Part shown: positions 11,288-62,752 of the stretch, piece by piece
Layout of the letters: each line of letters opens with the position of its first letter
How positions within the stretch are numbered: position 1 is the first letter of the stretch
Source: Glaucostegus cemiculus
Lineage: Eukaryota
NCBI GenBank assembly: GCA_976551045.1
Contig: CDPCPM010000370.1
Coordinates: 1,240,001 to 1,304,000 of the forward strand
Direction: 5' to 3'
Length of the DNA stretch: 64,000 nucleotides
The notes under the pieces: generated by a model
Seen by the model: only the letters and a program-made list of their open reading frames with translations
What the model was told of the DNA's origin: nothing
Databases searched by the model: none
Position numbers and translations under genes: made by a program

Positions 11288-11326
11288 CACAGTGCCTGGA
11301 ACGGTGTGTAGACTCGTACAATAACT
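11288..11326 (+). promoter_or_regulatory. 23-spacer recombination signal sequence
   Basis: CACAGTG (consensus) + 23 bp + ACAATAACT. Confidence 0.92.
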
Positions 11327-49095: not shown

Positions 49096-50326
49096 CTCAA
49101 TCTGCATCTCTGTGATTCATTCTATATATGTAGCTATATGTACCCGTGACTATGGATTGCTGAACACATTCACCAATTAGTGCCGTTATCAGCTGTGTGC
49201 CTAAGCCTTGACTATACCTTTTCTTTCATACTGAGATTTGTGAGCCTTTCGACACAGGTGCACAATGAAGAAAAAATATAAAAGAGATGCCTTGGGGATT
49301 GGTTTGAATTGGAACCTGATTGCAATTTTGACAGTTTGACCTGGCTTCCATCAGTTTAACAGTCAGGAGGAGGATCTTATCTTCTCGCCAAAGTCCATGT
49401 GTTTTCTGCAACTGATGTTCGATTCTTTAACCGAGATCTCACCAGTCACTGATTGCTGCCAATTGTCTTGTTGAATGGATTGACATTTTTGAGGGGAATC
49501 TTCGACTTTTAATTATTTATCTCGTGGCATTTATTCAGCCGTATTTCCACATGGATCAAACAAATGAAATTATTCAGCAGACATAAACAAACTTGAGTTA
49601 TTCCATACAAAATAGTTACGTAAAATATAACAGCATGAAAGCGATCCGCATGCCATCTTATTAATTCTGAAAGAAACTCGCTCAGAGGGATCGTACAGGG
49701 AAAACCCAAGGACGAACAGATCCAAAAGTCACAAATATATGGCATAAAAGGATCAGTAAGATAGCAGTAATCTTCTTTGGAACGGAATGGAAGCGGCAAC
49801 ATTTATTTTATTTCCATTGGAGTCTGCGTGTCCCATGCACAGCAAGGGTTTATGCATCACCGACCGTCTCCCACAGGCCACACTTTTATTATACTCTGGA
49901 CATATTTCTTCAAAATTCATTCCAAGCTTTTGGCTGCGGTATTAGGGAAATAGTCGGGCATTTATCTGTTTGAGGACCTGATTATCTGTAATATCGGTCG
50001 GTGTCCTGGTGGATAATAGGAATGAGTATGGATCTGATGTCACCCCGGAGATCGCGCAGTGGGTCCTGGCTCACTACCTTAATGTAAGTCTATCTGCAGA
50101 AGTAAACAAGTATCAAGCTATAACTCGATCCCGCTGGTGATGTGGAGAGGGCAGCTTAGCTCCGCCAGCCTCCCCATCAATCGAATGGTTCCACCCACAA
50201 CCGCGTCCTCCTCTCTTCTCCCGGGTATTTATATGTCGTACACAGTCTCCACAATCCAACTTTCCTCAGTTGGTTTGTAACAAAGTTTAGCGCAGGATTA
50301 ATTCCATCATGATTCCCAGAAGGATA

Positions 50327-50369
50327 ATGTCGGCGGCTTCACTGAGCCTGTTTCTGGCTTTTTTACCTC
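50327..50369 (+). CDS. IGHV: IgH V leader exon
   Basis: MSAASLSLFLAFLP, phase-1 donor GTGAGT at 50370. An in-frame upstream ATG lies at 50309. The intron contains an N gap (50419-50701). Confidence 0.88.
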
Positions 50370-50793
50370 GTGAGTCATGTTGCAGGACATGTTTTTTGAC
50401 GCTCACTGACTACCTCAGNNNNNNNNNNNNNNNNNNNNNNNNNNNNNNNNNNNNNNNNNNNNNNNNNNNNNNNNNNNNNNNNNNNNNNNNNNNNNNNNNN
50501 NNNNNNNNNNNNNNNNNNNNNNNNNNNNNNNNNNNNNNNNNNNNNNNNNNNNNNNNNNNNNNNNNNNNNNNNNNNNNNNNNNNNNNNNNNNNNNNNNNNN
50601 NNNNNNNNNNNNNNNNNNNNNNNNNNNNNNNNNNNNNNNNNNNNNNNNNNNNNNNNNNNNNNNNNNNNNNNNNNNNNNNNNNNNNNNNNNNNNNNNNNNN
50701 NGACTCTTCCTTTTTATCTCAGAGCATAGAATCAGGACTCATTGTCCCAAGGTTTGTCCTCAGTCTTCTTCTCCTTTTTTACTTAATTCGCAG

Positions 50794-51107
50794 ATGTCCA
50801 TTCATACGTCCTGTTGACGCAGCCCACGACAGAGACCTCCAGACCCGGGGGGTTCCTCAGACTGACCTGTAAAACCAGCGGTTTCGATCTTGGCAACGAC
50901 TGGATGCACTGGGTCCGTCAGGTGCCCAAACAGGGGCTGCAGTGGCTGCTTGAATACAAAAATCCATCAAGCAAAACCTTCGCATCGGGCATCGAGAGCA
51001 AATTTACTCCGTCCAAAGACACCCGAAACGGGATCTTTGCCTTAGATATGAAGAATCTGAGGACGGAAGATACGGCCATTTATTACTGTGCGAGAGATAC
51101 GACGGGT
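50794..51107 (+). CDS. IGHV: IgM-type VH exon with 3' extension (probable germline-joined V-D)
   Basis: Acceptor [58 protein letters not shown]...[35 protein letters not shown]. There are 18 nt between the Cys codon and the heptamer. Confidence 0.95.
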
Positions 51108-51145
51108 CACTGTGCTGCAACCAGCGTGATTCCCGAACAAAAACA
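51108..51145 (+). promoter_or_regulatory. 22-spacer RSS 3' of VH(-D)
   Basis: CACTGTG + 22 bp + ACAAAAACA. Confidence 0.88.
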
Positions 51146-51444
51146 TACACAGCATATTTCCTTCTGCTTGAAGTTACCAACAAGACAGGAGAGGCCGATG
51201 AAGGCAAACTCATATTATAGTTCTGCATCTAAACTTACACAGAGCGAAAAAAATGTAACTGGCTGCAGTATAGTTTCTGTCAATTTTACAGGTGCTACAG
51301 GCGAACATAACTGAGCTTTATTTCTGGCAATGAGGAGCACACGGTGACATAACCCACGAGTGCACACTTTCAGCGGTGTCTGAATCAGTGTTTTTAAAGC
51401 CAAAAAAAAGTCGTTCTCGGCATTCTTCAGCAGACCATCTGCGG

Positions 51445-51472
51445 AGATTTTGTCATGGCTTGTCTCGCTGTG
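51445..51472 (-). promoter_or_regulatory. 12-spacer RSS 5' of the (D)J segment
   Basis: Plus strand AGATTTTGT + 12 bp (CATGGCTTGTCT) + CGCTGTG, which on the minus strand reads CACAGCG-12-ACAAAATCT. Confidence 0.85.
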
Positions 51473-51532
51473 TTTACCGGGAGGCCTCCCTTGAAAACTG
51501 GGGAGGAGGCACCATGTTAACGGTGACTGACG
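51473..51532 (+). CDS. IGHJ: IgH J segment with 5' extension (probable germline-joined D-J)
   Basis: 60 nt reading (tt)YREASLENWGGGTMLTVTD, with the WGxGT motif. Phase-1 donor GTGAG at 51533. Not present in the ORF track. Confidence 0.9.
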
Positions 51533-54500
51533 GTGAGAAACATCCTTGATTCACTGACTGATCAGTTGTGATTTTACTGGGTGGCTCATGTTATTTTGGC
51601 AAATAATTCCACTACGTATGTTTTGCATTCTGTAGAATTCTGGGTGATGCTCTTCTGAAAAATGTGATGTGATACTGCTGCAGGGAAATCATGGAATTGA
51701 ATTTTGCCCATGCTGATTCCAATTGATGCATTGACCTTCAGGTTTTGTGATTTAAGTTGTATTTGATCAAGTATGTTTGCGCCCTGATTGCTTTCAGTGC
51801 ATTGGTGTTTTGAAATTGTTTAAAATGTATACAATGATGATCCTGGGAAATAACCAACTGCCGTTCGTGATCCAAAGCAAAACTTTGTATCAATCTGCCC
51901 AGGGAATACAACAATGCAAGAACAGGTAAATTTTGAGTTCAACATAAGCATGTTTCCGAAGTGTGTGTTTTAATTGGTGTAATCGCAGAGCAATAACGAA
52001 CATTTTATTTTAGATTGGACCCGTAACAGTCCAACGTTTACATACTATGAGAATTATACTGATTACAAGTGATAAATAGTGTCTTTGACCAATATCGCAG
52101 TTGTGCTCCAAATTCGCAATCCGTGAAACGTGATCCATGGAATCAGAATCCAGTGGTCTTTATGGTATTCAGGGTTAATTTAACACAGTTTGCTTATTGA
52201 AAGCAAGGTTTGGTAGAATTTTATTGGAGATTATTCTGCAACTAATTCTGGTGAATTAGTTTCGAAAAATAATGTTATGAGATACAGCCCATCAGTGACA
52301 TAGTTTAGTGATTGTCTCTGTGTGACAACATGTCACGATATTTCAATGACCGGCCCTTCTAAAAGCTTAATCCAAGTGGCCGTGAATGTTGCGGCTTTAC
52401 TCAGTGTGGGGTCAGATCATCTGACAGAAAGCACGTCAGTAAAATGACTATGTTTTTAACTAGTTACTGGAAATAAGAAACATAAATAGTAAATTCTACA
52501 AACACGCAGCGTATCCGACACATGTGCGTGAAGAGCAATAGAGATTAATTTTCAGCTTGAGATCCTTCGTCAGGAATAGTCTTCGAAGGGTCATCGACCT
52601 GACCTGAAATTTTTACTTAGTCTCTCTTTCCGCAGATGTTGCCTGACATGCTGAACGTTTCCTGCAAACTGATGTTTCAGACACGCAAGTAAACTGTTTG
52701 GGGCAATATATTGGCTAGTTTTCGGTAGATTTCAGAATTCGAATGAAATTTACCGAAGTGACGTTTTAAATTCCAAACTTGGCTCCCGATGAAATATACG
52801 AGATATTAAATATTGAAATATAATATCTCACAATTGAAATAATCATCCATTTGTGATGGTAATAATTAATGGATTGGCAGTTTGAAGAATAGTTATGGGA
52901 ATAAAATGGCAAGTTATTTAATAATAAAGTACGAACTGCAAATGTTGTGCGTTCGGTAGTTTCCAGTTGATAACTGCAAATACACAGCAGTTTAATCACT
53001 TCTCAGCCTTAAATCATACCTTCATTCTCCTTGAATATAATTTTCTGTTCAGTAACAAATCCAATATCATATGATTAAGGGCAATTCAAAGCTGCTTAAA
53101 AATTAATTGGGATCTCAACAATTTTTAATTTGATTTTTAATAAATTCAGCGAAGGTACACAGTCTGTTGTAATATTTCATTCGAAGGGTTAATGTGATCC
53201 TTATATTATTCCCTTCTGCCGGTTTCCAACAGTTGTGCTGCTGATACAGAATTTACTCAGGTATTATGTTGAGCGTATATTTTTAAATGCTCACAAATTC
53301 AATCTCCCCTGTGCATTGCCCAGTGTGAATGAAATGCTTCTTTCAGTTCGAACTGATCATTACAAACATTGCATATCATAATTATCAGGATATAACTAAG
53401 TTTTGTTTTTCATTTTTGTGAATGATAGGAGTCAAGAGAGTCAAATATTCAGTGTACTGTTTATCATCAAATAACGGTGCCTCCACACAAATTCCATTTA
53501 TTTTCTGAGTCCGCTTGGTCTTATTGACAAATTTGTGGCCATGCCCAGGAGCTAATTTATGATAGTTTATTTGTAGCTTCTCACAATCTGTCGTCCTGGG
53601 TCCAATATTGGGAAAACCACTGTTTTGCAGTCCATCGTGGTTAGTGCAATTTTACGCTGCCAAACTCTGAACTATTGCAATGTCAGAACCTTAATACATT
53701 ATCAGGAATATGCTCCGAGTATGAGGAAATTAAATTAAATTGTAAATATCTGGAGTTGGGAGGACAGGTAGAAGTTTCAAGCTATATTAACAGGTTTTAT
53801 TTAAATATATAATGCTCCAAAATAGTCTTTCATTCATGCAATTGTTGATGATTTTAAAATGTGATACACTCCCCCAATTCATATTCTAAAATTTGTCGGC
53901 CAGTCAAAAACTGGTGTAAAATTTCTACTCCTCAGAGTACAGTTGATCAATATGAATATTAATTCCCATTGAAAATATGTTAAACCAAACTGGTTTGACA
54001 CTATCCTTCTTATCGCATTGGTTTACACTATGTGAAATATCAACGGCTGGATAAAAGCTTTCACTTTATCTAAATTGAGAGATCCTCAGTTGAGAGATCA
54101 GCGTATTTCATTGTTCTACCCAGCTGTACAAAGCATTGCTGTTGATCTCAGCGACTTTACCCCGGATTTTCTGTGACGATATAAAATCTTCCGCTTAATC
54201 ACCAATTTAAAACAACCGACATCGTGCCTCTGAATTGGCATCACTGCGCCAAATGCCATGGGATGTTCTTAAGTGAGTTTAAAAAATTCAAAGGAATATG
54301 ATTGTGTGGGTCAGCACACTCAAAGAACGTAAAGTGAAATTGTTTGGTGTTCAATATTGTTTTACCCAATGGGATTGCAATTTTCATGGAAATAATCTGC
54401 AGATTCAAATAATTGGGCAGTAAATAGATACCAGAAGTTCTGAAAGTGACAGATCCCACAGATCTGTTTTCGATTTAGGCACCGTTTTTGCGTGTCTGTT

Positions 54501-55870: not shown

Positions 55871-56167
55871 CGGCACCGTCTGTCCCCTCCCTCTACGCTC
55901 TCCTCTCCTGTGACCAACCCAGTCAGGCCGGGTCGATCACCTTCGGTTGTTTGGCGATGGACTACTCTCCGACGGGCATCAGTGTTTCCTGGAAGAAAGA
56001 TAAACTGCCGGTCACCACCGGACTGAAGAGCTACCCCGCAGTGTTCAACGAGAAGGGAACTTACACCCGCAGCAGCCAGTTAACCATTACTGAGTCAGAG
56101 GCAGGGAACAGCACCATATACTGCGTGGTTCAGTATCGGGATGCAGTCATGGAGGTCAAAATGCCCG
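55871..56167 (+). CDS. IGHM: IgM constant exon Cmu1
   Basis: Acceptor [21 protein letters not shown]...[10 protein letters not shown]...SWKKD...[29 protein letters not shown]...IYC...MP. Donor GTTAGT. Confidence 0.95.
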
Positions 56168-57142: not shown

Positions 57143-57454
57143 ATCGAACAGTGTTTCATCCCACTATCGTGATCACTGTGAATGGCATTGATGAAATAAG
57201 AATGAGTAGAAAAGTGACAGCCGTGTGTTCGATCACCGAGTTCCGTCCCGCGAAACTGACCGCGACGTGGTTAAGGAATGGGCAGCCCTTGAATTCAGGC
57301 GTCGTCACTTCCCCTGCCTTTGAGGTGAACGGGAATTTCTCGGCGACCAGCTGGGTCACATTCCCTGCCGCAGAATGGTTCAGTGGTTCGGTATTTACCT
57401 GCCAGGTCACCCATAGAAATAACACACAAAGCCGAAACATCAGCATCTCTCAAG
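57143..57454 (+). CDS. IGHM: IgM constant exon Cmu2
   Basis: Polypyrimidine tract and CAAG acceptor. DRTVFHPTI...VCSITEFRP...WLRNGQ...EVNGNFSATS...EWFSGSVFTCQVTH...SRNISISQ. Donor GTAAGA. Confidence 0.95.
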
Positions 57455-57820: not shown

Positions 57821-58126
57821 ATCCGAACTGTTACGAAGAACAGATTACAATTCAGCCACCAAGACTGGAACAGGTCTTACTAGAGGCGTCTGTGACCTTA
57901 ACCTGCATCGTATCTCATGCACCTTATGGCGTCCAAGTGGCCTGGAGACAAGGAGAGAAGCAGTTGAAATCAGAGGTTACCTTCCAGCCAGGAGAGGCCC
58001 GCGACAGCGTGATCAGCAACCTGAAAATCTCGACGCAAGCCTGGCTGAGTGGGGATGAATTCCATTGCGTGGTGAGCCACATGGAAATGCCAACTCCGAA
58101 AAGGGCTTCGATCCGCAAGTACGATG
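57821..58126 (+). CDS. IGHM: IgM constant exon Cmu3
   Basis: Acceptor [47 protein letters not shown]...[32 protein letters not shown]. Donor GTATGG. Confidence 0.95.
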
Positions 58127-59451: not shown

Positions 59452-59843
59452 ATCCACATCCGCGGGAACCATCCGTATCCGTCCACCTTCCGCCGACAGA
59501 TGAAGTCTCCGCTCAGAAGTCTATAACTCTCACCTGCTTTGTGAGAGGTTTCTCCCCTCGCCAAATCTTCGTTAAATGGACGGTCAATCACAAGCCAGTG
59601 GATTCGCGCAACTACAAGAACACCGAGGTGGTGGCGGAGAAGGACAACAGAACCTTCTTCATGTACAGTGTGTTAACCGTTGGGTCGGAGCAGTGGAATA
59701 GCGGTGCGTCTGTCTCCTGTGTAGTTGGACACGAAACCCTCCCCATGAAGACCATCACCAGAACGGTCAATCGGTCTAGCGGTAAACCCAGTTTTGTCAA
59801 CGTTTCCCTTATACTGATGGATGCTGCCAATACTTGTCAATGA
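59452..59843 (+). CDS. IGHM: IgM constant exon Cmu4 plus secretory tailpiece
   Basis: Acceptor [20 protein letters not shown]...[17 protein letters not shown]...[10 protein letters not shown]...[22 protein letters not shown]. Internal donor G|GTAAAC at 59782 for the membrane form. Confidence 0.96.
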
Positions 59844-59869: not shown

Positions 59870-59885
59870 AATAAATACAAATAAA
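59870..59885 (+). terminator. Secretory-form poly(A) signals (two AATAAA)
   Basis: AATAAA at 59870 and 59880, ~27 nt after the stop. Confidence 0.75.
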
Positions 59886-62196: not shown

Positions 62197-62324
62197 ATTT
62201 ACCTGACAGCCACAAGATTGAAAACTATGAAGGAGACAGAGAGAATATCTGGACAATGGCTTCCACATTCATCATCCTGTTCTTCCTGAGCATTTCCTAC
62301 GGCGCTGCCTTAACTCTAGTGAAG
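62197..62324 (+). CDS. IGHM: IgM transmembrane exon TM1
   Basis: Acceptor TTTAG. DLPDSHKIENYEGDRENIWTMASTFIILFFLSISYGAALTLVK with the conserved antigen-receptor TM motif. Donor GTGAGT. Confidence 0.95.
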
Positions 62325-62743: not shown

Positions 62744-62752
62744 GTCAAGTGA
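62744..62752 (+). CDS. IGHM: IgM TM2 exon (VK*), giving cytoplasmic tail KVK
   Basis: Acceptor TTTCATAG followed by GTC AAG TGA. Candidate poly(A) signal AATAAA at 63477. Confidence 0.9.
   Translation, partial: VK

Follow-up and report, generated by a model that had tools for sequence, protein, structure and literature searches.

Of the immunoglobulin heavy-chain (IgH) miniloci of horn shark and little skate, a significant fraction is reported to be assembled in part or completely, 'as V DD-J//C, VDJ//C, or V D1-D2J//C' (Lewis and Wu 2000, PMC2193153); according to the same source germline-assembled IgH miniloci were first described in 1988, and a 2016 review lists 'VD-J, VD-DJ' germline forms (PMC5192425). 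The VD1-D2J layout, with the variable (V) segment fused to the first diversity segment (D1) and the second (D2) fused to the joining (J) segment, is already known, and the IgM cluster analysed here is a further example of it, in a genome that holds the layout twice. The cluster lies in a 64-kb window, the whole stretch of DNA that was analysed, on contig CDPCPM010000370.1 (C370) of the Glaucostegus cemiculus assembly; all feature coordinates are positions within the window. We regard it as probable that this window gene is an intact IgM cluster whose V-D1 and D2-J fusions were likely made by RAG in germ cells, with one D1-to-D2 join left and a short-range, semi-invariant complementarity-determining region 3 (CDR3) as the expected outcome.

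Two recombination signal sequences (RSSs, designated by spacer length) face each other between the V and J ends of the gene. An open VH+D1 exon (50794-51107) ends C-A-R-D-T-T-G, 18 nt beyond the Cys codon, and runs into a 22-RSS, and a 60-nt DJ segment (51473-51532, reading YREASLENWGGGTMLTVTD), with 26 nt ahead of the Trp codon and a GT donor at its end, is preceded by a 12-RSS. The distance between the signals is 299 bp nonamer to nonamer and 365 bp heptamer to heptamer; both retain CAC, and the canonical consensus is matched at 27/32 positions. No further RSS was found from 51108 to Cmu1 at up to four mismatches, and the J-C intron holds no [WF]GxGT J motif. The original prediction, made from the letters alone, had described two facing signals about 300 bp apart, the long V end, the 12-RSS before J and the lack of a free D or second J before Cmu1, and all of this is borne out.

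A Cmu4 search recovered 17 IgM clusters, all on C370, and the V-to-J region was read in every one (loci other than the window gene are designated by L numbers). Ten are unjoined V-D1-D2-J clusters with the RSS pattern 23 / 12-D1-22 / 12-D2-12 / 23. Free V ends in 14 other IgM clusters stop 7-10 nt (usually 8) after the Cys codon and carry a long (22-24) spacer wherever the RSS was read, and unjoined J segments usually have 14 nt ahead of the Trp codon and a 22/23-RSS; a long V end combined with a 12-RSS J is thus not the normal state. The interior of the window spacer was compared with each of the three intervals of eight of the ten unjoined clusters, L004 and L049 being left out. It aligned with the D1-D2 interval in 8/8 (scores +76 to +130, identity 0.57-0.61) and gave no alignment with the V-D1 and D2-J intervals of these clusters, where every score was negative. 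Therefore the window gene, judged by its sequence, is a VD1-D2J partly joined IgM cluster, with V+D1 and D2+J fused as had been proposed. Both lost intervals, V-D1 and D2-J, are gone without an RSS remnant. Position and length are the main grounds for the D assignments; letter matches are modest, at 3-7/12 positions for D2 against 11 paralog D2s and at 7/10 for the D1 remnant against the last 10 nt of the L002 D1. The remnant is ~4 nt shorter than the usual 14-nt D1. Such modest matches are in line with the divergence of the nearest paralog V, which is 75% identical to the window V. The observations named beforehand as speaking against the proposal (a long V end with a 12-RSS J in other clusters, a spacer matching a V-D1 interval, absence from germline DNA) were not made.

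Cmu4 of the window gene is 72-80% identical to its 16 paralogs on the same contig. An orthologue search returned 13 proteins, the best at 67% identity and none an orthologue, and the nearest named proteins to the window VH are shark VH (62-67% identity). Among the paralogs, L004 has a damaged D1 3' RSS, L005 has Phe instead of the J Trp, and the last IgM cluster (L049:7570-7866, C370 ~2037 kb) combines an ordinary Cmu set with a VH only ~41% identical to that of the window.

RAG recombination in the germ cells of an ancestor would have fused V to D1 and D2 to J. At the D2-J join the 12 nt of D2 are followed by 6 nt exactly reverse-complementary to the D2 end, a palindrome such as hairpin opening would leave. 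One this long arose in 1/143 pairings when actual D2 and J ends of this genome were joined bluntly, and shuffling gave p values of 0.0007 at the site and 0.005 anywhere in the 26 nt. Palindromic (P) nucleotides are the favoured but not proven reading of these letters; germ-cell RAG joining with P regions has been argued for nurse shark light chains (PMC2193156).

Partly joined clusters number 7 of the 17 on the contig, with nine joins in total, and fully joined clusters 0/17. The VD-DJ form is found in the window gene and L014, both with 409 nt from Cys to Trp, V-DD-J in L007, L011 and L047, VD-D-J in L013 and V-D-DJ in L015/L016. In the second VD-DJ cluster (L014:1506-2270, C370:743205-743963), 17 nt follow Cys and 26 nt precede Trp, and the ratio of nonsynonymous to synonymous substitution (dN/dS) is 0.37 in the C exons; the letters TC after its V end may be a 2-nt P addition. 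The clusters L047 and L016 are sisters (100% bootstrap) with different joins, D1-D2 and D2-J, so germline joining occurred more than once. Because each retains the other's free ends, the joins of L047 and L015/L016 can be read base by base, and they show trimming only, with zero added letters. In L047 (~381 kb) and L015/L016 (~430 kb) the V-D1 interval is unusually long, ~1.1 kb. Free trees separate the two VD-DJ clusters with weak support, and approximately unbiased (AU) tests do not reject a clade of the two (p 0.38 for the spacer, 0.36 for the C exons, 0.085 for all); in these trees Cmu1 of L009 is missing and the three DD-joined clusters are without spacer. The census would represent repeated germline RAG products of several types within one genome.

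The window gene has the make-up of an elasmobranch IgM minilocus, with one VH, D segments, one JH, its own four Cmu exons, a secretory tail and transmembrane (TM) exons (Table 1). The leader, Cmu1-4, the tail and both TM exons are in frame with canonical splice sites, and the secretory tail keeps its Cys. The leader starts one codon 3' of the paralogs' ATG, that position being ATA in the window gene and the next codon ATG.

Table 1. Positions of the parts of the window gene, as read within the 64-kb window.
Feature	Position	Strand	Remarks
Upstream (putative promoter) region	49950..50326	+	alignable with upstream regions of 14 paralogs
TATA-like TATTTATA	50226-50233	+	inside upstream region
Leader exon MSAASLSLFLAFLP	50327..50369	+	phase-1 GT donor
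VH exon to usual V end (8 nt past Cys codon)	50794..51097	+	frame open, V-set domain
D1 remnant, 10 nt, V-fused	51098..51107	+	by position against D1-type 22-RSS; 7/10 letters as in L002 D1 3' end
22-RSS, D1 3' signal, CACTGTG/22/ACAAAAACA	51108..51145	+	
D1-D2 intersegment interior, 299 bp	51146..51444	.	homology to D1-D2 interval of 8/8 unjoined paralogs
12-RSS, D2 5' signal, CACAGCG/12/ACAAAATCT	51445..51472	-	
D2, 12 nt, J-fused	51473..51484	+	position and length as paralog D2s; letter identity 3-7/12
6-nt exact reverse complement of last 6 nt of D2	51485..51490	+	candidate P nucleotides or diverged J 5' end
JH (…LENWGGGTMLTVTD)	51491..51532	+	GT donor at end
Cmu1 exon	55871..56167	+	open, AG/GT ends, C1-set
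Cmu2 exon	57143..57454	+	open, C1-set
Cmu3 exon	57821..58126	+	exon of open frame
Cmu4 and secretory tail (ends NTCQ*)	59452..59843	+	internal membrane-form donor 59781; AATAAA at 59870 and 59880
TM1 exon	62197..62324	+	in frame in membrane form
TM2 exon (ends VK*)	62744..62752	+	in frame

The step left for a developing B cell would be a D1-to-D2 join, with RAG cutting at the 22/12 pair. If made bluntly, with 18+26=44 nt, this join is out of frame, as had been calculated beforehand; the usual trimming and additions could restore the frame, and the resulting CDR3 would be nearly fixed, at ~12-16 residues on the pattern ARDT(T)(G)-x-(Y)REASLEN. In a toy junction model (assumed trimming of 0-5 nt and additions of 0-6 nt, 100,000 joins each), 33% of the modelled joins were productive in the window gene versus 30% in two unjoined clusters, and the modelled joins yielded ~1,900 distinct CDR3 peptides versus ~30,000. 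The gain would therefore lie in a single step where three are usual and in a far narrower CDR3; the frame yield is not improved. The original prediction was right that the join needs processing, but this is no special constraint on the gene; a single remaining join was also rightly predicted, but it is light-chain-like only in being one step, since it is a D1-to-D2 (22/12) join. Three-point Nei-Gojobori estimates against five other clusters gave branch dN/dS values of 0.28 for the C exons (95% confidence interval (CI) 0.20-0.42, 411 codons) and 0.26 for V (0.10-0.65, 101 codons), which indicate purifying selection on the branch of the window gene. By these sequence-based measures the gene is probably functional and likely in current use.

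Several points weigh against this interpretation. The dN/dS values cover the whole terminal branch (dS ~0.3), on which the join is not placeable, and the gene may therefore have lost its use after joining. Compared with the family majority, RSS positions are kept no better than the spacer interior (23/32 vs 197/299). The leader intron (50370-50793), mostly N in the window, has 424 bp as against 101-184 bp in 14 paralogs, which suggests an insertion. According to Lee et al. 2000 (PMC2193156), expression of germline-joined heavy-chain genes was undetected in horn shark; the authors see in this a reason to question how much joined and partly joined heavy-chain genes matter, and they call the joints of both hard to dissect. 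The palindrome region may alternatively be a diverged blunt J, as 12+14 nt is the exact blunt length, and one paralog J matches 10/14 of the nt after D2. Finally, DNA run X1 is without cover of 51409-51496, which holds the DJ join, and may come from the assembly's own sample, and run X2 is without cover of the locus.

Part of this evidence fits a gene that was joined in the germline and is now unused, a neutral accident silenced or sidelined too recently for visible decay. Such a fate is unlikely; in its favour are the undetected expression of joined heavy-chain genes in horn shark, RSSs no better kept than the spacer, and the shifted start codon and long leader intron. One of the seven partly joined clusters, L011, has indeed decayed, with frameshifts in V and Cmu2; unjoined clusters decay too, however, L003 having a stop in J and a Cmu2 frameshift and L009 a V frameshift, so joining is not predictive of decay here. 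Every exon and splice site of the window gene is intact, its dN/dS values are below 1, a value outside both CIs, and L014, the other VD-DJ cluster, has open V and C exons as well.

Limiting rearrangement has been proposed as the mechanism of shark heavy-chain exclusion (Malecek et al., PMC2435157); extrapolating from this, a gene two steps ahead might be over-used under such exclusion. It is possible, if still rather doubtful, that partly prejoined IgM genes, rather than being accidents, are long-kept, expressed genes which give a semi-invariant, innate-like early IgM and possibly an antibody-type T-cell receptor (TCR) delta. In that case the window gene and its VD-DJ paralog, two steps ahead, would be the first to complete rearrangement early in life, and germ-cell RAG would have repeatedly reshaped the IgH repertoire of this genome (7/17 IgM clusters and an RSS-swapping inversion in nine copies). 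The value of the window gene is that of a clean test object, a single-copy, intact and selected VD-DJ whose CDR3 carries a unique tag at either side. With CARDTT and REASLENWGGG as fixed tags, the use of partly joined heavy-chain genes can be tested directly, and one repertoire data set could tell if and when this one is used.

On C370 the TCR alpha/delta V array extends over 248-3014 kb, and all 17 IgM clusters (370-2035 kb) are embedded in it. Four TCR V segments lie in the window between 10960 and 30460; they have 23-RSSs at 11288, 21918 and 24681 (+) and ~30120 (-), and the first segment is frameshifted. In T cells that join distal TCR Vs to J-alpha by deletion, the IgM clusters would be lost. 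TCR-type V exons between IgH clusters have been reported (PMC12227049), so the linkage of IgH and TCR is already known. From this position the main role of the prejoined VD could be to supply TCR delta chains with an antibody-type V made in advance, by inversional joining to D-delta, which stands ~1.06 Mb away in opposite orientation. The 5' 12-RSS of D-delta is compatible with the 22-RSS of the VD, and trans-rearrangement of IgH-V to TCR delta has been described in sharks (PMC6795676, PMC12227049). Such a main role is nevertheless improbable: the V-23RSS ends of unjoined clusters are just as compatible, so that prejoining confers no particular access, the estimates above place the cluster's own Cmu exons under purifying selection, and its own 12-RSS partner is only 299 bp away.

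The joins were probably inherited through the germline. In nurse shark, thymocytes commonly contain VD-DJ intermediates and B cells have them too (PMC2435157), and the contig shows partial joins only and no full VDDJ, as thymocytes tend to; even so, it is very improbable that a two-step (2R) lymphocyte intermediate was caught in the assembly. In X1, a public DNA run representing one sample of one study, one contig (50848-51408) spans V, the VD join and the spacer, and the two letters by which it differs from the assembly suggest another haplotype or individual. Depth at the VD join (5.71) is that of the J-C intron (5.69), no loose end of a free V is present, and a single junction is seen in the X1 contigs, which is moderate evidence as contigs drop rare variants. 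The surrounding TCR alpha/delta locus is unrearranged, as seen in the D-delta, J-delta, C-delta and J-alpha segments on the same contig. Non-templated (N) additions are usual in somatic shark junctions. Here, none of the nine joins in the seven clusters exceeds the blunt sum of typical segment lengths, and net added letters are found at 0/9. A related heavy-chain family, moreover, has one joined form in nine near-identical copies (98-100%), which needs inheritance.

That ordinary deletions and not RAG removed the two intervals is very improbable, for although there is no close unjoined sister (best paralog 75%) from which the joins could be rebuilt base by base, both losses stop at or within a few nt of the coding ends with the RSSs wholly removed; all nine joins, and a heptamer-to-heptamer inversion that another family carries, are equally precise. 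That family consists of nine non-IgM heavy-chain cluster copies (L091-L099; contigs C97, C117, C628, C900, C615, C868 and C969), 98-100% identical, which we take to be IgW-like. Their V-D1 spacer is inverted heptamer to heptamer and 93% identical to the reverse complement of the normal spacer, which leaves V with a 12-RSS and D1 with a 23-RSS; by these features the inversion reads as a germline double hybrid joint. In addition, D2 is joined to J, D1 is extended at its 5' end by 2 P-like nt, and two copies of the heptamer follow D1. With the RSSs swapped in this way, every rearrangement would have to include D1. For D1-D2, a germline inversion of the hybrid-joint type has been described (PMC2193153), and a limited literature search found no published case involving V-D1. 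The genome also holds non-IgM heavy-chain clusters with three D segments and a KEC/KDC motif (extra Cys) in VH framework 2 (L101, L109-L115).

No paper giving a genome-level description of joined IgM clusters was found, in a search outside which most subscription journals lay, so that absence from print is not implied. Among described systems, the somatic 2R VD-DJ intermediates of nurse shark have a topology identical to that of the window gene (Malecek et al. 2008, PMC2435157); those joins vary from cell to cell, whereas the window gene presents one fixed pair of joins in the assembly. The NS4 light chains of nurse shark resemble it in that joined and split genes occur in one family, with RSSs cleanly removed and candidate P nucleotides; they are light chains, fully joined, and have close split sisters (up to 99%), in contrast to the 75% of the nearest paralog here (PMC2193156). 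Nurse shark IgM1gj is likewise a germline-joined IgM heavy chain with restricted CDR3, but it is fully VDJ-joined, RAG-independent and without Cmu2, whereas the window gene needs one somatic join and keeps Cmu2, a difference that had been correctly foreseen (PMC4279169, PMC5192425). The remaining 365-bp RSS-flanked spacer and the intact Cmu2 rule out that the window gene is itself IgM1gj. The likeness in described layout is to the VD1-D2J//C miniloci of horn shark and little skate, which share the V+D1 and D2+J fusions, the kept D1-D2 interval with its RSS pair and the presence of unjoined clusters alongside (PMC2193153, PMC5192425). Compared with these, the window gene comes from another genome and is complete, with signs of purifying selection and a full census of the clusters around it.

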